A stretch of 64,000 nucleotides of DNA from Aulosira sp. ZfuVER01 (GTDB taxonomy: Bacteria; Cyanobacteriota; Cyanobacteriia; Cyanobacteriales; Nostocaceae), in NCBI GenBank assembly GCA_034530615.2, contig JAVRCV020000008.1, positions 128,001 through 192,000 of the forward strand, in the 5' to 3' direction. Under the pieces are notes generated by a model that ran no database searches, was not told the origin of the DNA, and saw nothing but the letters and a program-made list of their open reading frames with translations. Numbering within the stretch: the stretch's first letter is position 1; the number at the start of each line of letters is the position of its first letter. This document shows positions 3,739 through 43,886 of this stretch, piece after piece. The translations under genes and the position numbers were made by a program.

Positions 3739-4428
3739 GTGATTTTGAAACTGAAATATGACAGTATGGCTGCTAAAAAACTGACTAATTCTGACAAACA
3801 CGTTGTTGTCGATGCAGAGCGACAACAAGGCAAAAATAAAAATAAGAGCATAGCTAGTAAAGCAACGCCAATCCCAAACATATCCTATAGTGTTGTCCAT
3901 GCTATTCGGGGACGAATTCGTTTTCGGATTCCTCGGTTAGCCAAAGATTCTGAGTATGCCAATAAACTCCAGCGATTGATAGAATCAGATGCTAGGATTA
4001 CAAATGTACGAATTAACCCTGCTGCCGCATCAATTGCGATCGCCTATCAACCTGGGGTAATATCAGGCGAAAAAATGCGATCGCATCTAGTTAATCTAAT
4101 TCAAACTGCCCCAAATATAGCTTTACCAGCCCCAGTCACAGCAAAAACAATTGCCAAAGCCATCTTGGATGCTGTAATTAACTTTATTGACGGTACACGT
4201 AACATCAACAAAGCGCGTACTGCTATTAAGCATCAAGAAGTGAAGCCAAATATTTGGGAACGGATACTAGGTAGCGCTAAAGCTGTCATCAAGGGGCTAA
4301 AGTCTGCAATTGTGTTTATATTGCCTAATCAACAGTGGCGATCGCAAAGTAGTAAAAAGAAATTAGGCTTGCAGCCATTAGCACCGCCACCTATGGCTGG
4401 AAGTAAACATCGCCTAGCTTTGCCATAA
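3739..4428 (+). CDS. HMA2/CoBaHMA-like domain protein
   Basis: YSVVHAIRGRIRFRIPRL...VRINPAAASIAIAY, an HMA-like pattern with an H-x(3)-GRxR basic motif and no CxxC. Start may be the ATG at 3766. Confidence 0.78.
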   Translation: MILKLKYDSMAAKKLTNSDKHVVVDAERQQGKNKNKSIASKATPIPNISYSVVHAIRGRIRFRIPRLAKDSEYANKLQRLIESDARITNVRINPAAASIAIAYQPGVISGEKMRSHLVNLIQTAPNIALPAPVTAKTIAKAILDAVINFIDGTRNINKARTAIKHQEVKPNIWERILGSAKAVIKGLKSAIVFILPNQQWRSQSSKKKLGLQPLAPPPMAGSKHRLALP

Positions 4429-4595
4429 TTGCTCGCTGCATTCACAAAAGGCGTAAAGTCGATTTTAGTCAGCAAAAAGGCAAATTCTGTCTCATTTGAG
4501 TAATTCCAAAACTCATGAGAAATATTGCACTTGTTGCAATAGCCAATTAAATCCAATTTTTGGACTTTATTTAATTTACGATCGCAAATAGAAAA

Positions 4596-5570
4596 ATGGG
4601 TACTCTTAATTTTGATCAACTTCCTAATGAGAATCTTTTAGTTAGAACCATACATAGTGCCGTTAAAGGCAGAGCTAGATATAAAGTGAATGGACTTTAT
4701 GGTTCGGAGGCTGTCAAAAGATATCTGGGATTTAGGTTGTCAAAAGAGAAAGGAATTGCCCAAGTTAGTGCTAATACTTGGACAGGAAATGTTCTGGTGA
4801 TTTTCCATCCTGATTTTAGCCCAAGTGCGATCGCACTTCTTATTCAAGATATTGTCCGAGATTACGTAAAAGAAGCCAGAAAACTAGTGCTAGAGACAGC
4901 ATCTATTAATAAAGGGATAGAAAAAGCTCAAAATCTACCTCAAGCCTTAAATCAAGTCAATAATCAATTAATTATCGCATCTGGGACTATTGGCGCTTTT
5001 GCTTTAGGAGCCGCATTGCTGCACAGATATAATCTGGATGAAAGCATATTGTTAGCCATTCAAAAGTTACACACACCAATTCTAGACAGCATCATGCTGG
5101 GTATCACGTCTCTAGGCGATCCACTGGCTTTGGTGTTGATTTGTTTGGGAGTAGAATTTTATCTGCGTTATCATCGTCGTCCCTACGCTACTCGCTTAGG
5201 TTTAGCTACAGCCAGTGCCATCAGCTTAAATTATCTGCTAAAAGTGATTTTTGGTCGGGCGCGTCCAGCACTGTGGGATCGAATTATTCATGTAGGTCAA
5301 CATAGCTTTCCCAGCGGTCACGCTATGGTGTCAATAGTGATTTACGGTTTCATCTGTTATATTTTGGCGGAGCAATTTCCCCAATGGCGCAAACAGATTT
5401 TCGCCTTGAGCGTTGTCTTAATTTTGTTAATAGGTTTTAGTCGGCTTTATTTGGGCGTACATTGGCCTACTGATGTGTTAGTTGGCTATGCTATCGGTTT
5501 AGCTTGGTTAGTTGCTTGTATTCTCACATTGGAAGTGCAGCCCAAATATAACTTGTCAGGTGGACATTAA
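4596..5570 (+). CDS. HMA2-like domain fused to a PAP2 family membrane phosphatase
   Basis: N-terminal IHSAVKGRARYKV domain; PAP2 motifs KVIFGRARP, SFPSGH and SRLYLGVHWPTDV intact; several hydrophobic helices. Confidence 0.88.
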   Translation: MGTLNFDQLPNENLLVRTIHSAVKGRARYKVNGLYGSEAVKRYLGFRLSKEKGIAQVSANTWTGNVLVIFHPDFSPSAIALLIQDIVRDYVKEARKLVLETASINKGIEKAQNLPQALNQVNNQLIIASGTIGAFALGAALLHRYNLDESILLAIQKLHTPILDSIMLGITSLGDPLALVLICLGVEFYLRYHRRPYATRLGLATASAISLNYLLKVIFGRARPALWDRIIHVGQHSFPSGHAMVSIVIYGFICYILAEQFPQWRKQIFALSVVLILLIGFSRLYLGVHWPTDVLVGYAIGLAWLVACILTLEVQPKYNLSGGH

Positions 5571-5857
5571 GAAAACGCAAAGCGTTTCACTCATGGGAAA
5601 GTGTTGATTTTTTCTAGTGAAAACTCGGTTTATCAAGAAATGTTGATACCACTAAGCAGCTTACACCTAACAAATTATTCTAAAAAGTAGGAACTGACTT
5701 TTCGTGTGAAAATTTCGGATTTGTCTTATGGGCAAATGTGAGGAGAAAGGGAAAAGAAAGCAGGAATAACCTGTCACTTTGAACCCTGACCCTTCCCTCA
5801 ATGACCAGAGTCTATCCATAACTCCACTCTCGCCGCGAAGTTCAGCTAATTGGAAAA

Positions 5858-8800
5858 ATGAACAATCATTTCCCCGACTCCCGCCACAGTAAGAATCCTA
5901 TTGTTCGGGCAATACATACTGCTGTTAAAGGGAGAGCTAGATATAAGGTTGATGGACTTCATCACTCGGAGTCACTTAAACAATATATTGAGTTAAGGCT
6001 GAAAGAGGAAGCAGGGATTAGGGATGTCTTTGCTAATCCACTTACAGGTAATGTACTGGTAATCTTCCAACCAGATTTTAGCTTTCAAGCGATCGCCTGG
6101 CTCATCAAAGCTATTGTTTGCGATTTCCTCGAAAAAGGGAGAAAATCTCTAGCCAAGACACCTGTTATCAGCCCAGCTAAACATCTATCTTCCTCCTCTC
6201 TTGCAAAAAGAGGAAACCATACCAGCAAAATGAGCAAGTTGACTACATCTGGTCAGGAGCAACAAATTTTACCCTGGCATATTTTAAAAGCAGATACTGC
6301 GATCGCAGATTTACACACATCAATAACATCAGGATTAGCTACTAATACTGCTCAAGCCAACTTGCTCAAATATGGAGCAAATATCCTACCCATATCTGAA
6401 AAACGCTCTAAGCTGAGTATTTTTATTGACCAATTTAAATCTTTGCCAGTAGGACTACTAAGTATAGCGGCAGGTTTGTCAATTGCTACTGGGGGCATAG
6501 CTGATGCTGTAGTAATTATGGGAGTTGTATTCATTAATGCTGTAATTGGCTACGCCACAGAAAGCAACTCAGAAAAGATTATTAATTCACTCAAGCATCT
6601 AGTCAAACCATCTGCTGTGGTCATTAGAGATGGAATTTCGCAAGAAATCAGCGCCACGGAGATTGCGATCGGAGATATTTTAGTACTTAGACCGGGCAGT
6701 TATGTGCCAGCTGATGCCAGACTAATTGAAGCCAATCGTTTGACTGTAGATGAGTCGGCTTTAACAGGTGAGAGTTTGCCCGTTCCCAAAAACACCGAAC
6801 CCCTGAGCAAACAGGATATACCCCTTGGCGATCGCGTGAATATGGTCTACATGGGAACCTTAGTTACTGGCGGTCAAGGACTGGCTGTAGTGGTTGCTAC
6901 AGGCAAATTTACCGAAATGGGCAGAATTCAAACCCTGGTTTCTGAAAGCCAAATGCCAGAAACGCCCATGCAAAAACAACTCGACCAAGCAGGTAGCCAA
7001 CTTGTTGTCGTATCGGGGGCGGTTTGTGCAGTTGTTTTTGGTATCGGTCTGTTGCGGGGATATGGTTGGATTCAGATGTTGAAATCATCCATTTCCTTGG
7101 CTGTGGCTGCGGTTCCCGAAGGATTGCCAACCATTGCAACTACAACCCTAGCTTTAGGAATCGCCAACATGAGACGGCATAACGTCTTGATTCGGCGTTT
7201 GGATGCGGTGGAAACCTTGGGTTCTGTACAGACAATTTGCTTGGATAAAACAGGCACGCTCACAGAAAATAAAATGTCTGTGGTTGAACTATATGCAGAT
7301 AGCAAATCTATCCAAGTGTCATCTGATGGTAAATTTATTGCCCAATCGCAAGATATTAACCCTTACAACTGCGATCGACTCTTAAAGCTAATTCATGTCT
7401 CAGTACTGTGCAATGAGAGTGAAGTCCACAAAAATTCCGATGGAGAATATGTAGTCAAAGGTTCAGCTACAGAGAATGCTCTAATTTATTTGGCAATTAG
7501 CGCTGGGGTAGATGTTATCCAACTCAAAGAAAATTATCCATGTTGCCGAACTAATCACCGTTCAGAACATCAGAATTTCATGAGTACGGTGCATACCATA
7601 AAACACGAGGATACTTCATCTACTTTGGTTGCTGCTACAACAGAAATCGGTTCCTTACAACCATTGGCGATAAAGAAAAAACGCCGGGGTCGTCCGCCGT
7701 CATCGCGTCGTGCAGAAAAGCAACTTGTGGCAATTAAAGGTAGCCCTTCTGAAGTGCTGGAAATGTCTACCCAACAAATTAAAGATGGCGAACTAGTACT
7801 GCTAACAGAAGCAGATAGACAAGCCATCGATAATGAAAACGAAGTCATGGCGGGTAAAGGACTGCGGATATTAGGGGCAGCTTACACTCATGTTGATGCC
7901 GCACAAACAAATGGCAACGTTCCGCACGATGTGATTTGGTTGGGTTTGATTGGGATGACAGACCCGATTAGAAATGGTGTCAAAGACTTGATGGGTGTCT
8001 TCCATCAAGCGGGGATTAATACAGTCATGATCACCGGGGATCAAAGTCCCACAGCTTACGCTATTGGTAAAGAATTGAATTTGAGTCGCAGCGAGCAACT
8101 AGAAATCCTCGATTCTACTCATCTTAACAACCTTGACTCAGAGTTGATGAAAGGATTATGCGATCGCGTTAATGTTTTTGCGAGGGTTAGTCCTGCCAAT
8201 AAATTACAAATCGTCCAAGCGCTGCAAAGCGCAGGTAAAGTTGTTTCCATGACTGGAGATGGTATTAATGATGCACCTGCTTTAAAAGTTGCTGATGTTG
8301 GCATCGCAATGGGGCATACAGGCACAGATGCAGCGCGGGAAGTTGCAGATATTGTCTTAGAAAATGACAATTTGGAAACCATGATTATTGCTGTCAGTCA
8401 TGGACGGACAATTTATAACAACATCAGAAAATCTGTGCATTTTTTGCTGTCTACCAACTTGAGCGAAATCATGGTGATGTTGACAGCGACAGCCGCAGGT
8501 ATTGGTCAGCCTTTAACTGCCATGCAACTATTGTGGCTGAATTTGGTGACAGATATCTTCCCCGGATTAGCTTTAGCTTTGGAACCACCAGAACCCGATG
8601 TTTTAAATCAACCACCCCGCAATCCTGAAGAACGAATTATCAAAACATCCGATTTTCAAAGAATTATTTTTGAATCAGCGACAATTTCTGTTAGTTCCTT
8701 AGCAGCATATAGCTACGCAATTAGCCGCTATGGTATTAGCGCACAAGCCAGCACCATCGGTTTTATGAGTCTGACAATGGCGCAACTGCTACATACTCTT

Positions 8801-9040
8801 AGCTGTCGTTCGCCGCAACACAGTATTTTCAGTTCCGAAAAACTGCCAGCTAACCGTTATTTAACTGTAGCGCTGGGAGGCTCCTTTGGTCTGCAAATAT
8901 TAGCAGCAGCAGTACCAGGACTCAGACAAATGCTGAACTTGACAGCAATTAATCTGGTAGATAGTGCTGTGATTGGTACTAGTGCTTTACTGCCATTTGT
9001 AGTGAATGAAGGTACGAAACCAATTCAAAATTCGTCTTGA
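5858..9040 (+). CDS. P2A (Ca2+-type) P-type ATPase with an N-terminal HMA2-like domain
   Basis: TGES, DKTGTLT, TGD and GDGIND motifs; SERCA-like M4 VAAVPEGL, M5 STNLSE and M6 WLNLVTD; N-terminal IHTAVKGRARYKV domain. Confidence 0.92.
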   Translation: MNNHFPDSRHSKNPIVRAIHTAVKGRARYKVDGLHHSESLKQYIELRLKEEAGIRDVFANPLTGNVLVIFQPDFSFQAIAWLIKAIVCDFLEKGRKSLAKTPVISPAKHLSSSSLAKRGNHTSKMSKLTTSGQEQQILPWHILKADTAIADLHTSITSGLATNTAQANLLKYGANILPISEKRSKLSIFIDQFKSLPVGLLSIAAGLSIATGGIADAVVIMGVVFINAVIGYATESNSEKIINSLKHLVKPSAVVIRDGISQEISATEIAIGDILVLRPGSYVPADARLIEANRLTVDESALTGESLPVPKNTEPLSKQDIPLGDRVNMVYMGTLVTGGQGLAVVVATGKFTEMGRIQTLVSESQMPETPMQKQLDQAGSQLVVVSGAVCAVVFGIGLLRGYGWIQMLKSSISLAVAAVPEGLPTIATTTLALGIANMRRHNVLIRRLDAVETLGSVQTICLDKTGTLTENKMSVVELYADSKSIQVSSDGKFIAQSQDINPYNCDRLLKLIHVSVLCNESEVHKNSDGEYVVKGSATENALIYLAISAGVDVIQLKENYPCCRTNHRSEHQNFMSTVHTIKHEDTSSTLVAATTEIGSLQPLAIKKKRRGRPPSSRRAEKQLVAIKGSPSEVLEMSTQQIKDGELVLLTEADRQAIDNENEVMAGKGLRILGAAYTHVDAAQTNGNVPHDVIWLGLIGMTDPIRNGVKDLMGVFHQAGINTVMITGDQSPTAYAIGKELNLSRSEQLEILDSTHLNNLDSELMKGLCDRVNVFARVSPANKLQIVQALQSAGKVVSMTGDGINDAPALKVADVGIAMGHTGTDAAREVADIVLENDNLETMIIAVSHGRTIYNNIRKSVHFLLSTNLSEIMVMLTATAAGIGQPLTAMQLLWLNLVTDIFPGLALALEPPEPDVLNQPPRNPEERIIKTSDFQRIIFESATISVSSLAAYSYAISRYGISAQASTIGFMSLTMAQLLHTLSCRSPQHSIFSSEKLPANRYLTVALGGSFGLQILAAAVPGLRQMLNLTAINLVDSAVIGTSALLPFVVNEGTKPIQNSS

Positions 9041-9210
9041 AAAGTTTGCTCAACGGGGGGAACCCCCGCACGCAACTTTTCGCAAAATTCAAAATTCAAA
9101 ATAATTCCAGCCTTTGATAGTGCCTTACCACTCTTCCTCACTATCTCAAACTCTCAAATCCTTACGCTCTTAATTCTCTGCGCTTTTGCGTCTTTGCGTG
9201 AGAAAAATCT

Positions 9211-10410
9211 ATGAAAAAAGACTTTTTATTTACATCTGAATCTGTCACCGAAGGACATCCTGATAAACTTTGCGATCAAATTAGCGATGCCATTGTCGAT
9301 CAATTTCTCCGGCGAGACCCCTTTGCCAGAGTCATTACTGAATGTGCGGTATCGACGGCGATTGTCTTCATTTCTGCTAGGTTTGAGTCGGATGCGATCG
9401 TAGATTTTACAAAAATAGCCAGACAAGTAATTAAGCAGGTGGGTTATGACCAGTCTGATTTTAATGCTAAGACTTGTAGCATTATGACGAGTTTGAAAGA
9501 ATTACCTAACAGTGAAAATCGCTGTTGGGATGAAAAAAAACTCTCGGAACAGGAGATAGAAGATATTCCCGTCAAAGACCAAGTGACGGTATTCGGTTTT
9601 GCTTGCAATCAAACTAAAGTTTTGATGCCACTTCCTATTTGGCTGGCACACCAATTAGCTAGAAGATTAACCAATGTCAGGCAGGAGAAAATATTGCCAT
9701 ACCTCGCACCTGATGGTAAAACTCAGGTAGCAATTGAATACAAAAATAGCAAACCTCATCGAATTTATAGTATTACTTTAATTGCCAGTCAAACCAAACT
9801 ATCAGCTTCAAATGCTGCTAATCTCAAACGCCTTCAAGAAGATTTGCGAGCAAGTGTAATTGATGTTGTTTTTGCAGACGAAGAACTCAAACCCGATGCT
9901 AACACCAGAATATTTATTGACTCTGACGATCCCTTTGCAATTGGTGGCCCTTCTGTTCATTCGGGGTTAACGGGTAGGAAGAATGCCATAGATACTTACG
10001 GCGAATATTCCCGCCACAGTGGTGCAGCACTAAGTGGCAAAGACCCCACACGCATAGATAGAGTCGGAGCTTATGCAGCGCGTTATGCTGCGAAGAATAT
10101 AGTTGCAGCAGGTTTAGCTGATGAATGTGAGGTGCAACTTACCTACTCTATTGGACTTTCTCGCCCAGTGAGCATTCAAGTAGAAACCTTTGGCACAGGT
10201 AAGATGGATGATGAAGAAATTGCTGTAATTTTAGAAAAGAATTTTGATTTCCGCCTTGCAGGAATTATTCGGGAGTTTAATTTAAGATATTTGCCTGCAA
10301 TTGTCAAAGGCGGATTTTATAAAAAGCTTGCGGCTTACGGTCATGTAGGTAGGTTAGATATTGGTGTTTTGCCTTGGGAAGAAATTGATAAAGTGCCGAT
10401 TTTGCAATGA
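9211..10410 (+). CDS. metK: Methionine adenosyltransferase (MetK) paralogue with a divergent substrate pocket
   Basis: FTSESVTEGHPDK, PDGKTQV, GLTGRK, SGKDP and AAYGH retained; the GAGDQG motif is altered to PVKDQV. Confidence 0.88.
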   Translation: MKKDFLFTSESVTEGHPDKLCDQISDAIVDQFLRRDPFARVITECAVSTAIVFISARFESDAIVDFTKIARQVIKQVGYDQSDFNAKTCSIMTSLKELPNSENRCWDEKKLSEQEIEDIPVKDQVTVFGFACNQTKVLMPLPIWLAHQLARRLTNVRQEKILPYLAPDGKTQVAIEYKNSKPHRIYSITLIASQTKLSASNAANLKRLQEDLRASVIDVVFADEELKPDANTRIFIDSDDPFAIGGPSVHSGLTGRKNAIDTYGEYSRHSGAALSGKDPTRIDRVGAYAARYAAKNIVAAGLADECEVQLTYSIGLSRPVSIQVETFGTGKMDDEEIAVILEKNFDFRLAGIIREFNLRYLPAIVKGGFYKKLAAYGHVGRLDIGVLPWEEIDKVPILQ

Positions 10411-10421
10411 ATTTCCAAGTC

Positions 10422-10454
10422 CTAACGCACCATCTGAGACTTGTGGTGCGTTAG
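10422..10454. terminator. Hairpin between convergent metK and DUF5132-like genes
   Basis: Inverted repeat ctaacgcacca...tggtgcgttag. Confidence 0.5.
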
Positions 10455-10478
10455 CGTGCAGCATAACACATTCACACT

Positions 10479-10751
10479 TTATTCTATGGGTTTAGCTGAC
10501 TTCATCGGCTGTTCAGCAAGCTCAGTTCTGGCTTCTGTTAAGATATCCTCCCAAGCGTCGTTGATTTCTGCGATCGCTCCTTTGTTGTTTTCATAGAAAA
10601 GAATTGCACGTTTAATCGCTGCTTTGGTAATTGGTCTAGCTACACGCGCGATCGCTGGTGCAAATAATGGTAGAAGTACGATTGCTGCAATACCTGTTAC
10701 ACCAAGGCCTTCAACTAAATCTTCAATGTCTGGTAAAAATTTAATTGACAT
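10479..10751 (-). CDS. DUF5132-like small membrane-associated protein
   Basis: GLGVTGIAAIVLLPLFAP...RPITKAAIK...WEDILTEARTEL pattern: a hydrophobic segment followed by an amphipathic helix. Confidence 0.72.
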   Translation of the reverse strand: MSIKFLPDIEDLVEGLGVTGIAAIVLLPLFAPAIARVARPITKAAIKRAILFYENNKGAIAEINDAWEDILTEARTELAEQPMKSAKPIE

Positions 10752-10830: not shown

Positions 10831-11700
10831 ATGCGGATCTTTATGAGCAATAGTCCTGCGGTTAAAACAATTCTTGTACTTGCAGCTAGTCCCGTAGATC
10901 GAGCTAGACTGCGCTTAGACATAGAAGTGCGTGAGATTGAAGAAGGGTTGCGACTGTCTAAATATCGCGACCAAATTAAGTTGGTATCTCGATGGGCTGT
11001 GAGAATCAAAGATCTGCGTCGAGTATTGTTAGATTTAGAACCCCAAATCGTGCATTTTTGCGGTCATGGTGTTGATGAAGGAATCATATTTGAAGACGAA
11101 CAAGGCAAAGGTAAACTAGTCACTACAGAAGCTTTGGCGAATCTGTTTGAGTTATTTGCAGGTCGAGTTGAGTGTATTGTACTCAATGCTTGTTATTCCC
11201 AAGCGCAAGCCAAAGCGATGATTCAGCACGTTGGTTATGTAATTGGGATGAGTAAAGCTATTGGGGATGAAGCTGCAATTAATTTTGCCGTGGGGTTTTA
11301 TGATGCTCTTGGTGGCGGACGTAATGTAGAAGACGCTTACAAGTTTGGTTGCAATGCAATTCAACTGCAAGGAATTCCAGAGCATTTGACTCCCATTATC
11401 CAAATTAATACGGCATTAAAGGCTGCATTGGGATCTACGCAAACAACTACCATCACACCTCAACCAGCAAAGCCTGCTCCGAAAATAGATCGAATGAAGT
11501 TGATTAAACTACTCAATGATATACCGCCGCAACAGTTGGATATGCTGTTGTTTGCAGTAGACGCGCCTAATGGTGTAGTTCCACCACTCACTGCTCCCCA
11601 AGGCGATCGCGCTGCTGCATTATTAAGATGGGCACAAAGTCCAACAGGTTGTGGTTTGGCAGCACTGCAACAAGAATTAGATAACATCCTTTGTTCGTAG
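10831..11700 (+). CDS. CHAT (caspase-like) domain protein with a C-terminal effector-associated-like helical adaptor domain
   Basis: ILVLAASP, LRLDIEVREI, catalytic His in VHFCGHG and Cys in LNACYS; the last ~65 aa are duplicated at the N-terminus of the next gene. Confidence 0.88.
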   Translation: MRIFMSNSPAVKTILVLAASPVDRARLRLDIEVREIEEGLRLSKYRDQIKLVSRWAVRIKDLRRVLLDLEPQIVHFCGHGVDEGIIFEDEQGKGKLVTTEALANLFELFAGRVECIVLNACYSQAQAKAMIQHVGYVIGMSKAIGDEAAINFAVGFYDALGGGRNVEDAYKFGCNAIQLQGIPEHLTPIIQINTALKAALGSTQTTTITPQPAKPAPKIDRMKLIKLLNDIPPQQLDMLLFAVDAPNGVVPPLTAPQGDRAAALLRWAQSPTGCGLAALQQELDNILCS

Positions 11701-11728
11701 TTGCGCTTTAGCGCTAAAGCGCAACTAC
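11697..11728. repeat. Perfect 32-bp palindrome (REP-like cyanobacterial repeat)
   Basis: gtagttgcgctttagc|gctaaagcgcaactac, overlapping the CHAT stop codon. Confidence 0.85.
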
Positions 11729-11863
11729 AAACCGAAACGATCGCTTGTGTAATTAATTGAAAACGGTGCGTTTACTCCGTGAGACAACATATCCTACATT
11801 TAAGGGAAAATTGGCGTAGGTTTTGTTGTTCTAAAATAGAACATTACTCTTGTCAACCCGTTA

Positions 11864-14353
11864 ATGGTTACACCCCAACGCGATCGCTTTGCACTCATCA
11901 AGCTGCTGAATGAGATAACGCCGCAAGATTTGGATATGCTTTTGTTTGCAGTGGATGCGCCGAATAATATAGTTCCACCACTGACAGCACCCCAAGGCGA
12001 TCGCGTTTCTGCATTATTGAGATGGGTGGAAGGATCGACGGGTTGTGGTTTGCGGGTATTGCAACAGGAATTGGCAGAAATTGTCCCGCTACCGCAGAAC
12101 GACGAAATTGCAACAGCACAATTGTGGAATATACCATACCCGCGCAACCCGTTTTTTACAGCGCGTGAAGCTGTATTGCAAGAATTGCGGGAAGCTTTGT
12201 TAACCAAGAAGCTAGCAGCATTAAGCGGCTTGGGTGGGATTGGTAAAACTCAGACTGCAATTGAGTATGCTTATTGCTATAAAGATGAGTATCAGCAAAT
12301 ACTTTGGGTAAGGGCGGCTTCACAGCAAGAATTGGTGTCGGGTTTGGTGAAGCTGGCAGAATTACTCAAGTTACCCATCAGCCAAGAACAGGATGAAAGC
12401 ATAATAATTAACGCAGTTAAGCAGTGGTTAGCAACACATAACGACTGGCTGTTGATTGTAGATAACGCCGATGAAATAGCGATGCTGCGGGAGTATCTAC
12501 CAGGGGCGCATCAAGGTTATGTGTTGTTGACTACCCGCGCTCAGGCGACGGGGATATATCAGCAAATTGAAATTAAAAAGTTGCAACCGGAAGATGGGGC
12601 GCTGTTGTTGCTACGGCGTGCGAAACTGATTGCAGAAAATGCGGGGTTAAATGCAGCAACAGAAGAAGAATGCTGTTTAGCAGCAAACATCTCGCGGGAA
12701 ATGGACGGTTTACCCCTAGCATTAGATCAAGCAGCAGCGTTTATTGAAGAAACTCCTTCGAGTTTGGCGGAGTATTTGCAATTTTACCGGGAAGAAGCGG
12801 CGAGACTGCTGGCGGAACGAGGCGAACTGGCAATTGATCATCCCAGCGTGAGCATCACCTTTTCCCTAGCTTTTGAGAAAGTAATGCAACGTAACCCCAC
12901 CGCCGCCGATTTGATTGGCGTTTGCGCTTTTTTAGCACCCGATGCGATTCCTGAAGAAGTTTTTACCGAGGGTGCGGCAGAATTAGGGGAAAACCTCAGC
13001 CAATTAGCAAACAAACCCCTAGATTTTGTCAAAGTCATCGCCGAAGCGGGACGCTTTTCGCTGATTTACCGCAACTCGTCTAATAAAACCTTGGATATTC
13101 ACCGCCTAGTGCAGGAAGTGTTAAAAGCCGAGATGGATGAAGACAGCCGCCGTCTTTGGGCAGAAAGGACTGTTTGTGCAGTTACAAAAGTCTTTCCGAA
13201 TGTTGAATATGCAAATTGGCGGCTATGTGAGCGACTTTTACCCCATGCTAGAGTTGCAATTGATTGGATAAAGCAGTGTCAATTTGAGTTGGAAGCAGCC
13301 GCTTTGTTACTTGCTAAGACTGGCTACTACTTGCAGGAACGTGGACAGTACAGTGAAGCCGAACCTCTGTATCAAAAAGCATTGTCACTCAGGCAACGGC
13401 TGCTGGGAGAAGAGCATCCCTCTGTCGCCACCAGTTACAACAACCTGGCTTATCTCTACGAATCCCAAGGCAGGTACAGTGAAGCCGAACCTCTGTATCA
13501 AAAAGCATTGTCACTCAGGCAACGGCTGCTGGGAGAAGAGCATCCCCATGTCGCCATCAGTTACAACAATCTGGCTTATCTCTACGAATCCCAAGGCAGG
13601 TACAGTGAAGCCGAACCTCTGTTTCAAAAAGCATTGTCACTTAGGCAACGGCTGCTGGGAGAAGAGCATCCCGATGTCGCCATCAGTTACAACAATCTGG
13701 CTTTACTCTACAAATCTCGAGGCAGGTACAGTGAAGCCGAACCTCTGTTTCAAAAAGCATTATCACTAATGCAACGGCTGCTGGGAGAAGAGCATCCCCA
13801 TGTCGCCACCAGTTACAACAATCTGGCTTCACTCTACTATTCCCAAGGCAGGTACAGTGAAGCCGAACCTCTGTTTCAAACAGCTTTGTCACTAAAGCAA
13901 CGGCTGCTGGGAGAAGAGCATCCTTATGTTGCCCAAAGTTACCACAATCTGGCAGGACTCTACGATTCCCAAGGCAGGTACAGTGAAGCCGAACCTCTGT
14001 ATCTAAAAGCTTTGTCACTTTATCAACGGCTGCTGGGAGAAGAGCATCCTGATGTTGCTCAAAGTTACCACAATTTGGCAGGACTCTACGATTCCCAAAG
14101 CAGGTACAGTGAAGCCGAACCTCTGTATCTAAAAGCATTGTCACTTAGGCAACGGCTGCTGGGAGAAGAGCATCCCCATGTCGCCACCAGTTACAACAAT
14201 CTGGCTTCACTCTACTATTCCCAAGGCAGGTACAGTGAAGCCGAACTTCTGTGTCAAAAAGCTTTGGAAATTGCGGAACGCAGTTTAGGGGTGAATCATC
14301 CCAAAACAATTACTATCCGTAATAATCTGCAATTATTGCGCGATCGCACTTAA
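11864..14353 (+). CDS. STAND NTPase (NB-ARC) - TPR protein (NLR-like) with an N-terminal adaptor domain
   Basis: WNIPYPRNPFFTAR, Walker A GLGGIGKT, Walker B WLLIVDNAD, LLTTR, GLPLAL and IHRLVQ; 7 near-identical 42-aa TPRs plus a capping repeat. Confidence 0.92.
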   Translation: MVTPQRDRFALIKLLNEITPQDLDMLLFAVDAPNNIVPPLTAPQGDRVSALLRWVEGSTGCGLRVLQQELAEIVPLPQNDEIATAQLWNIPYPRNPFFTAREAVLQELREALLTKKLAALSGLGGIGKTQTAIEYAYCYKDEYQQILWVRAASQQELVSGLVKLAELLKLPISQEQDESIIINAVKQWLATHNDWLLIVDNADEIAMLREYLPGAHQGYVLLTTRAQATGIYQQIEIKKLQPEDGALLLLRRAKLIAENAGLNAATEEECCLAANISREMDGLPLALDQAAAFIEETPSSLAEYLQFYREEAARLLAERGELAIDHPSVSITFSLAFEKVMQRNPTAADLIGVCAFLAPDAIPEEVFTEGAAELGENLSQLANKPLDFVKVIAEAGRFSLIYRNSSNKTLDIHRLVQEVLKAEMDEDSRRLWAERTVCAVTKVFPNVEYANWRLCERLLPHARVAIDWIKQCQFELEAAALLLAKTGYYLQERGQYSEAEPLYQKALSLRQRLLGEEHPSVATSYNNLAYLYESQGRYSEAEPLYQKALSLRQRLLGEEHPHVAISYNNLAYLYESQGRYSEAEPLFQKALSLRQRLLGEEHPDVAISYNNLALLYKSRGRYSEAEPLFQKALSLMQRLLGEEHPHVATSYNNLASLYYSQGRYSEAEPLFQTALSLKQRLLGEEHPYVAQSYHNLAGLYDSQGRYSEAEPLYLKALSLYQRLLGEEHPDVAQSYHNLAGLYDSQSRYSEAEPLYLKALSLRQRLLGEEHPHVATSYNNLASLYYSQGRYSEAELLCQKALEIAERSLGVNHPKTITIRNNLQLLRDRT
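13349..14260 (+). repeat. 126-bp intragenic tandem repeat (TPR units)
   Basis: tacagtgaagccgaac recurs every 126 bp from 13349 to 14231. Confidence 0.95.
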
Positions 14354-43160: not shown

Positions 43161-43886
43161 TCATTCCTGTCTGTTGGTTTGATACGGCTTGATCAGCAGG
43201 CTAACTCCGGTTGCCCAAGCAACTGAGGCCATCCAGCCCGCTAGAATGTCGCTAGGATAGTGAACTCCTAGATATAGCCGCGTCCAGCCAATTGCCAACA
43301 CAAACAGACCTCCAGTAATCAGAACCAGCATTCCCCAGCGACTACCCCAAGTCAGAATCACTAATGCTGCTACTAAAGTCATGCTAGACATTGCATGACC
43401 GCTAGGGAATCCGTAGTCAAATTCTGGGGAGGGTGATTCCCAAAGATGAGGACGAACTCGATGCAAGAGTATCTTTGCTGTTCGGTTAATGAGGATGCTT
43501 CCTAGCAAGGTGGTGATGAAGTAAGCAAGTTCGCGCCATCTTCGTCGGATAAACAATACTAATGCGATCGCAGTCGCAACAGGAAACACACCCCAAAATA
43601 CACCAAATTTGGTTAATGTGGAAGCAAAAACATCTAGTTGCGGTTGCGCTGTTGAGTGAATTACTAACAAGATAGGTACATCCCAAGCAAAACCGCCTTC
43701 GTTCTCCCAAACCTCTTCTGCTAACTCCCCAAATACCTGTAGAGGTAAAAACACTCCTATCAACAACAACACCAAAGATGCACGACGGCGAACAATTAGA
43801 TGCTTCAAGAAGGTAAGGAAAGACTGGAAATATCTCCAAACAGCAGAGTTAAACATTTTGTTTTTTATCGCACTACAAGTCCTCAA
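43161..43886 (-). CDS. PAP2 family membrane phosphatase
   Basis: KILLHRVRP, FPSGHA and TRLYLGVHYPSD. Confidence 0.9.
   Translation of the reverse strand: MRTCSAIKNKMFNSAVWRYFQSFLTFLKHLIVRRRASLVLLLIGVFLPLQVFGELAEEVWENEGGFAWDVPILLVIHSTAQPQLDVFASTLTKFGVFWGVFPVATAIALVLFIRRRWRELAYFITTLLGSILINRTAKILLHRVRPHLWESPSPEFDYGFPSGHAMSSMTLVAALVILTWGSRWGMLVLITGGLFVLAIGWTRLYLGVHYPSDILAGWMASVAWATGVSLLIKPYQTNRQE

Follow-up and report, generated by a model that had tools for sequence, protein, structure and literature searches.

A conserved, apparently unstudied pairing of a CoBaHMA-tagged P2A-type ATPase with a variant MetK in cyanobacteria and other bacteria

In this study, we analyzed a five-gene locus of the cyanobacterium Aulosira sp. 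ZfuVER01, which lies in a stretch of 64,000 nucleotides (positions 128,001 to 192,000 of contig JAVRCV020000008.1; hereafter the window), and followed its parts through related genomes and metagenomes. All five genes are real. Four of them lie on the forward strand: orfA (3766..4428), a rare accessory gene for a soluble basic protein of 220 amino acids with an HMA_2/CoBaHMA domain of the solo/P1B clade and two amphipathic helices; an accessory gene (4596..5570) for a chimera in which a pump-derived CoBaHMA tag is joined to an intact PAP2 lipid-phosphate phosphatase; a core gene (5858..9040) for a P2A (SERCA/SPCA/LMCA1-like) P-type ATPase fused to an HMA_2/CoBaHMA domain; and a second core gene (9211..10410) for a paralog with the fold of MetK, the methionine adenosyltransferase (MAT), in which the triphosphate/metal site is retained and the methionine pocket is basic (hereafter the variant MetK). 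The fifth gene, on the reverse strand (10479..10751), encodes a small DUF5132 membrane protein with a hydrophobic N-terminal segment containing GxxG and an acidic helix rich in Ala and Glu, a putative scaffold of the PacL/FezA kind. Four co-oriented genes with a convergent DUF5132 gene had already been described from the sequence alone, and both the open reading frames and the Pfam matches agreed with that description. Pfam's profile for HMA_2 (PF19991) scored 42.4 bits in orfA, 31.8 bits in the PAP2 protein and 27.6 bits in the pump, the last being below the cut-off of 30, PAP2 (94.2 bits), P-type ATPase and DUF5132 (36.1 bits; cut-off 25) were matched as well, and so was each of the three MetK domains. 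Homologues of orfA open at a Met aligned with the ATG at 3766, not with the GTG at 3739. The gaps between the four co-oriented genes (167, 287 and 170 bp) do not imply a single transcript, and scans for promoters and terminators gave results at or below chance. Among the loci examined, the exact five-gene arrangement was seen in Aulosira sp. ZfuVER01 alone, and the closest named relatives of the locus were found in Halotia and Nostoc (82-93% identity). The same genome also encodes a canonical metK on contig C36 (49% identical to the variant), an ordinary P2A pump (37% identical to the tagged one) and, on contig C25, a second HMA_2/DUF5132 cluster built around a P1B pump.

What is conserved is a smaller core than the cluster proposed in the sequence-only reading, and it consists of the HMA_2/CoBaHMA-tagged P2A pump followed by the variant MetK, usually with DUF5132. 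We surveyed 301 genomes of the order, in which the variant MetK was called at E ≤ 1e-150; pump loci were examined as cut-out regions, and a full-length pump search with two candidates per genome missed known loci. All conservation counts given here are tallies rather than tests, and related genomes are not independent. The variant was present in 30 of the 301 genomes, Aulosira sp. ZfuVER01 included, and in all 29 others it lay directly downstream of a P2A pump, which carried the HMA_2 tag in every one of the 27 loci of the order whose pump start was on the contig. The gap between pump and variant MetK was at most 30 bp in 20 of 34 loci, with frequent start/stop overlap. For metagenomes, a pattern fixing only the motif region of the D238-to-His replacement retrieved at least 120 stretches, 80 of them with flanks. 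Among the matches listed, a pump was found by rule directly upstream of the variant in 59 of the 64 loci having at least 300 bp upstream; in the remainder it was recognized by eye in three (L080, L116 and L152) and absent from two (L079 and L140). The tag was fused in 28 of 29 full metagenome pumps, and the GC content of these loci ranged from 0.38 to 0.69. Since module-type pumps also occur without the variant MetK (genomes G014, G034 and G108, and Microvirga plasmid locus L076), whereas only 2 of 64 loci have the variant without the pump, the variant appears to depend on the pump and not the reverse. The module is almost certainly real; it is widely conserved and apparently unstudied, and the variant MetK is its most surprising part.

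Across several phyla, the usual gene order was DUF5132, an HMA_2 protein with transmembrane segments (HMA_2-TM), a helical protein, the pump and the variant MetK, and homologues of the variant were also found among Nitrospirota-type proteins and in high-GC metagenome loci. A search of plasmids with the variant MetK returned no variant (best match 49.8% among 187 records). In L102 (10105-10794), as in 18 further metagenome loci, the HMA_2-TM gene and the pump are separated by a gene for a helical repeat protein (about 230 amino acids) that is negative in Pfam and absent from the window. On the Microvirga plasmid (NZ_CP069355.1), an HMA_2-tagged P2A pump is accompanied by two HMA_2 proteins and a pair of DUF5132 genes (L076:4998-11786), and the 20 kb cut-out contains no variant MetK; loci L073 and L074 (G108 and G034) hold module-type P2A pumps with neither the HMA_2 tag nor the variant. 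In G208, the variant MetK is broken into two frames (L200:14844-16048) while the pump is intact, and the module, an MgtE-like gene, orfA and HMA_2-PAP2 all fall inside about 17 kb. Near 4 of 36 clustered cyanobacterial loci there were pstB-like genes together with MgtE, and 7 of 80 metagenome loci among the matches listed had a regulator of OmpR/PhoB type nearby. Scanning upstream of 32 loci with what we take to be the Pho-box consensus gave scores of 16-21 out of 24 against a background of 15-21, and the pst operons of the genome itself reached only 18-20.

The variant MetK passes TIGR01034 (383 bits; cut-off 309) and therefore bears the database name methionine adenosyltransferase. All top Foldseek matches of its predicted model were MATs, and the model (predicted local distance difference test, pLDDT, 58.5) served fold assignment only. 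For a residue census, 234 variant sequences, some of them redundant, were mapped on E. coli MAT and compared with 21 canonical cyanobacterial MetKs, which form a clade of their own apart from the variant and were invariant (21/21) at all positions surveyed. Some of the metal-ligand roles used in this census are those that we presume. Site roles otherwise follow published work (PMC3853416, PMC1282579, PMC6269016, PMC8715544), cited here, as are all sources below, for the parts of each that were available. The variant shares with canonical MetK (TIGR01034; E. coli 1RG9/1FUG) its fold, its profile score and the triphosphate, Mg and K ligands, with E8 kept in 219 of 221 sequences, H14 in 220 of 221, K265 in 233 of 234, and D16, K17, E42, R244, K245 and D271 in all; D163 was kept in 227 of 228. 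It differs, however, in coexisting with a canonical metK, in a replaced gating loop and in its methionine ligands: E55R (220/223), D238H (234/234), K269R (233/233), Q98L (190/224, the remainder being mostly other hydrophobic residues) and, at the sulfur contact, mostly D118N (144/224). On the nucleoside side, S99 was mostly replaced by Pro, F230 was kept in 165 of 233 sequences and K165 in 211 of 228. D238H was set beforehand by the search pattern in the 80 metagenome rows, whereas E55R (66/69) and K269R (79/79) are independent there, and K269R was also read in 38 of 40 short metagenome loci, the other two being unreadable. The replacement residues, R57, H250 and R281 in the numbering of the variant, are invariant. 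Among metagenome loci L078-L197, a subset (16/74) has Thr, Trp or another residue at the K165 position, which points to a sub-branch in which still more nucleotide contacts were lost.

Canonical metK was retained in 28 of the 29 genomes positive for the variant, and the genome without it was 89% complete. This retention, together with the rebuilt methionine pocket, indicates that the variant is very probably not a SAM (S-adenosylmethionine) synthetase, and the previous view of it as an ordinary adenosyltransferase could not be upheld. Compared with locus L005, the variant MetK showed 88 synonymous and 26 non-synonymous codon differences, and selection on it, as judged from the codons, is purifying; pseudogene decay was ruled out by the invariant new residues and by the excess of synonymous changes. 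We take D258 and K289 of human MAT1 to be the positions of D238 and K269. In the human enzyme, Asp258Gly and a Lys289 change were found to abolish SAM synthesis while phosphatase activity was retained (PMC6850014). A literature search for data on D118N in E. coli MetK found none. It thus appears that what was an acidic pocket for an amino acid is now a basic pocket for an anion, next to a triphosphatase site that is intact, with the adenine-side contacts relaxed. This combination would be best explained by a tri/polyphosphate hydrolase and second best by a transferase with an anionic acceptor, and the hydrolase is our leading guess, put forward tentatively. Under any such reaction, the variant MetK would be a widespread enzyme family that is probably hidden under a housekeeping label.

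The pump shares DKTGT, TGES, PEGL, M5 NxxE and M6 NxxTD with P2A Ca2+-ATPases (LMCA1, SPCA1 and SERCA), from which it differs by its extra N-terminal HMA_2 tag, and its best PDB matches were SPCA1 and LMCA1. In the window pump we located the phosphorylation site DKTGT, PEGL (E421), N867xxE870 and N895xxTD899. The Ca-site residues of M5 and M6 were present in 37 of 37 module-type cyanobacterial pumps and PEGL in all 36 in which it was visible, and the metagenome pumps agreed. The motifs D[Y/F]SCA and HNxxT of FezB, the P1B-6 pump of the ferrosome (fez) clusters (bioRxiv 2020.01.10.902569), are absent from the window pump, which supports the earlier classification of this protein as a Ca2+-type P2A pump rather than a P1B-6 one. 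Judged from these residues, the pump probably moves Ca2+. A lineage-specific basic insert lies in its nucleotide-binding domain (7673-7711), and opposite-strand frames suggest a comparable insert in L004 and L005; the RGRP core of the insert presumably resembles an AT-hook.

The three N-terminal domains of orfA, the PAP2 protein and the pump all contain H-x3/4-GRxR, lack CxxC and have 10-12 K/R against 5-8 D/E. They had been called Arg-rich and Cys-free, a description that stands apart from one Cys in the last helix of the pump tag. GRxR was invariant in 28 of 28 aligned pump and PAP2 tags and is also found in orfA. In terms of the CoBaHMA definition used for comparison (bioRxiv 2024.07.07.602159, PMC8890360), these domains have the PF19991 match (just below the cut-off in the pump tag), a His before beta1 and basic residues, without CxxC. 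In a tree of the tags, those of PAP2 and pump grouped together and separately from the solo and P1B tags (99/97, on a short alignment with long branches), which fits shared targeting. The tag of orfA fell in the P1B-type clade instead, and its HMA_2 domain was 50-54% identical to those of the P1B cluster on C25.

The tag of the PAP2 chimera was 59% identical to the pump tag and nested among pump tags. In the chimera of G110 (L070), a remnant of the first membrane helices of the pump sits between the tag and PAP2; the chimera therefore arose from the 5' end of the pump gene. When the 29 best non-self PAP2 loci were checked, chimeras turned up in seven other genomes; PAP2 matches ranked lower were judged by match start alone. 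These seven genomes belong to three genera, and all carry the variant MetK elsewhere (in two pieces in G208). The motifs that we take to define PAP2 catalysis, C1/C2/C3 (KxxxxxxRP, PSGH and SRxxxxxHxxxD), were intact in 8 of 8 chimeras. Inside the module, PAP2 was found in only 1 of 34 cyanobacterial loci, that of the window, and in none of the 80 metagenome loci, so that it was rejected as a core gene; the conserved neighbourhood expected from the sequence-only reading was thus borne out for the pump and the variant MetK (29/29 genomes of the order and 59/64 metagenome loci, as above) and not for PAP2. The gene orfA was found in 5 of the 301 genomes, every one of them positive for the variant MetK; in G145 and G208 it immediately precedes HMA_2-PAP2, and in L003 it precedes the pump. 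The AlphaFold model of its product was poor (pLDDT 47). The window brings together orfA-PAP2 and pump-MetK, each a small linked unit; in G208 the two lie about 7 kb apart. In the chimera, an enzyme can be seen to have gained the tag of the pump, which suggests that this tag serves as a portable address label. A second PAP2 gene in the window (43164-43886) has no HMA_2 tag and is 29% identical to the PAP2 part of the chimera.

The DUF5132 protein of the window has a hydropathy of 2.23 over residues 16-34, G18xxG21 and a tail with 9 D/E against 4 K/R. Among 17 aligned members, E73 and E77 were invariant (17/17), and 8 formed a fusion with the HMA_2-TM partner's membrane hairpin. Of 34 cyanobacterial module loci, 23 had DUF5132, as did 19 of 23 metagenome loci of at least 10 kb; among the 301 genomes of the order it was present in 121, including all 30 with the variant MetK. 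We examined 28 further DUF5132 loci, of which 26 lay beside an HMA_2-tagged P1B pump, one by a P2A module and one by neither. Therefore, the tag and DUF5132 appear to be a general kit for P-type pumps. One such cluster in Aulosira sp. ZfuVER01 (L001:8027-12617; G000:C25) comprises a tandem-HMA_2 protein, an HMA_2-tagged P1B ATPase with DFATG and NNGST in place of the FezB motifs, DUF5132 and an HMA_2-TM protein, and another DUF5132/P1B-type cluster (L207) adjoins feoAB-like genes.

PacL of Mycobacterium combines a transmembrane GxxG segment with acidic AE repeats, which bind the N-terminal domain of the pumps CtpC and CtpG (PMC13043812) and cluster these pumps in membrane patches (PMC13043812, bioRxiv 2021.10.01.462712). 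DUF5132 has the same anatomy, a transmembrane GxxG segment followed by an acidic, AE-rich cytosolic helix, and like the PacL/Ctp effluxosomes of Mycobacterium tuberculosis (DUF1490 plus a P1B ATPase) it stands beside a P-type pump whose N-terminal domain could be bound. The locus differs from these effluxosomes by its P2A pump, by DUF5132 and by having a MetK paralog as the tightest partner. DUF5132 would thus resemble PacL/FezA scaffolds in anatomy, not in Pfam family. In the ESM Atlas, DUF5132 was placed near DUF1490/DUF6110 clusters (0.87-0.88), one of which mixes DUF5132 and DUF6110 members, and we regard this as a lead only. A complex prediction for the pump tag (28-row alignment) and DUF5132 (17 rows) scored 0.00 against a mark of 0.32 and was used neither way.

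We tentatively propose that the locus encodes a CoBaHMA-tagged platform for a Ca2+-type pump, in which a scaffolded patch would remove Ca2+, the variant MetK would turn over tri-/polyphosphate and PAP2 would be optional; of these parts, the scaffolded membrane patch seems, on anatomical grounds, somewhat likely. DUF5132 would cluster in the membrane, and its acidic helix would hold the basic tags in the way that PacL holds P1B pumps in mycobacteria. Pump, tagged PAP2 and orfA would thereby come together in a single patch, at which the pump would move Ca2+ (possibly Mn2+) out of the cytosol. The variant MetK, making no SAM, would use the second activity of MAT, the hydrolysis of tripolyphosphate, short polyphosphate or ATP-derived inorganic triphosphate (PPPi). 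Basic residues in place of the methionine ligands would hold the extra phosphates, whereby phosphate release or polyphosphate turnover would be coupled to Ca2+ removal. PAP2 would be an add-on in a few lineages, trimming anionic lipid phosphates at the patch. If so, the module extends to a Ca-type pump the tag-plus-scaffold design of transition-metal P1B pumps (ferrosomes and effluxosomes), and gives named genes for the question of how calcium is confined in bacteria and linked to phosphate, which bears on cyanobacterial mineral and polyphosphate biology.

Several observations weigh against this proposal. First, the best NCBIfam matches of the pump were both below cut-off (TIGR01522, 613.6 against 798.3; TIGR01116, 521.7 against 703.4), and the window pump has Gln (Q976) at what we take to be the M8 position E908 of SERCA, as do all 37 module-type cyanobacterial pumps and likewise those from metagenomes. 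Second, 11 of 34 cyanobacterial module loci lack DUF5132, whose gene is transcribed convergently at the window locus; the DUF5132 genes of this genome had no Pfam match to DUF1490 or DUF6110, and the best value elsewhere was E 0.16, for one metagenome homologue. Third, the window locus has neither of two partners found in the multi-phylum operon, the HMA_2-TM protein and the helical-repeat protein. Finally, the invariant H14 and D163, the latter a ribose ligand, would also fit a nucleotide transfer reaction.

The sequence-only reading had raised the possibility of a storage structure, and we weighed this as a ferrosome-like, lipid-bounded Ca-phosphate storage organelle, in which the pump would load Ca2+ into a lumen and the variant MetK would supply phosphate. 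The parts list that it drew on was supported, the locus having it in common with ferrosome and CoBaHMA clusters. The fez clusters (FezA, FezB of P1B-6 type and FezC) follow a similar grammar, with an R-rich N-terminal domain on the pump, a small membrane protein of GxxxG type and an R-rich HMA-TM protein, and ferrosomes are rich in iron and phosphorus (bioRxiv 2020.01.10.902569). The usual multi-phylum gene order fits this reading, as do the CoBaHMA and DUF5132 genes that flank ccyA in Microcystis (bioRxiv 2024.07.07.602159). Like the fez proteins, the domains at our locus are R-rich, Cys-free (apart from the Cys noted above) and HMA-like, on the pump and on its partners, and the small DUF5132 partner is hydrophobic, though with GxxG rather than GxxxG. 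However, the FezB motifs are missing, the locus has no Feo or ferritin genes, and neither MetK nor PAP2 is among the fez genes in the available description (bioRxiv 2020.01.10.902569). Moreover, the same grammar makes plasma-membrane efflux patches in Mycobacterium (PMC13043812, bioRxiv 2021.10.01.462712), and cyanobacterial carbonate inclusions are described as being without a lipid bilayer (PMC11773610). On balance, the storage organelle appears rather unlikely, and a membrane efflux platform of PacL type, which the previous interpretation did not include, would fit the anatomy at least as well. We regard as unlikely also the wider version, a calcium-phosphate counterpart of the ferrosome in several phyla, in which a DUF5132/CoBaHMA-scaffolded compartment with a SERCA-type pump would be supplied with phosphate, or have it recycled, by a MAT-fold polyphosphate hydrolase without SAM synthesis; if true, this would also imply a branch of the MAT superfamily with a new reaction.

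A second alternative is that the variant MetK is still an adenosyltransferase with an anionic acceptor, such as a thioether 2-oxo/2-hydroxy acid or a lipid-headgroup phosphate, which would make the module a metabolite- or lipid-modifying unit. The retention of H14 (220/221) and D163 (227/228), together with the invariant R57, H250 and R281, is the pattern that a new specificity, and not decay, would leave, the lipid phosphatase was recruited via the same tag, and CoBaHMA has been hypothesized to bind anionic lipids (bioRxiv 2025.12.07.689555, citing Gaschignard 2024). On the other hand, the adenine-stacking F230 is kept in only 165 of 233 sequences, S99 is mostly Pro and K165 is replaced in 17 of 228, and the clustered neighbours, of which some were Pfam-scanned, showed no conspicuous methyltransferase or biosynthetic gene that recurred. 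A transferase is therefore improbable, in our view. Still less probable is a non-catalytic sensor of ATP, pyrophosphate (PPi) or polyphosphate that would bind and regulate the pump: the one-way dependence on the pump, the frequent start/stop overlap and the broken variant MetK beside an intact pump in G208 would suit it, whereas the near-invariance of the triphosphate and metal ligands, including the catalytic His, in 234 sequences is more than binding alone usually needs. Finally, an accessory role in calcyanin-dependent intracellular CaCO3 formation is very improbable. Two strains named as sources of variant MetK homologues, Chlorogloeopsis fritschii PCC 9212 and Fischerella sp. NIES-4106, carry ccyA (PMC8890360), and CoBaHMA and DUF5132 genes adjoin ccyA in Microcystis. 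Yet the available account of that neighbourhood names no pump and no MetK (bioRxiv 2024.07.07.602159), the variant also occurs in Nitrospirota-type proteins and high-GC metagenome loci, and no calcyanin-like protein was seen in this genome by the HMA_2 profile or by Gly-zipper patterns, a weak test made with no calcyanin query sequence. The 28 further DUF5132 loci likewise yielded no calcyanin.

With respect to known systems, the locus is not a fez cluster, not PacL by family and not MetK by pocket, and its layout works like that of the first two. It shares HMA_2 (PF19991) domains with the His and basic signature, as well as DUF5132, with the CoBaHMA family and the Microcystis ccyA neighbourhood (PMC8890360, bioRxiv 2024.07.07.602159), and differs from them in having neither calcyanin nor cax and in carrying these domains on a P2A pump and on PAP2. 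A literature search that covered neither Gaschignard 2024 nor the supplements of papers found no publication on the pairing of pump and variant MetK. Gaschignard 2024 is said to list CoBaHMA domains on transporters and lipid enzymes, and the tagged pump and tagged PAP2 may already be in print as architectures; what is new here is the origin of the PAP2 chimera and the comparison with PacL. Elsewhere in the window, the end of a polyketide synthase/nonribosomal peptide synthetase gene, recognized by eye from ketoreductase-, carrier- and thioesterase-like parts, lies just upstream of the locus (18-1724), and a CHAT-domain protein and an NTPase-TPR protein (10831-14353) have a near-identical stretch of about 68 amino acids in common.

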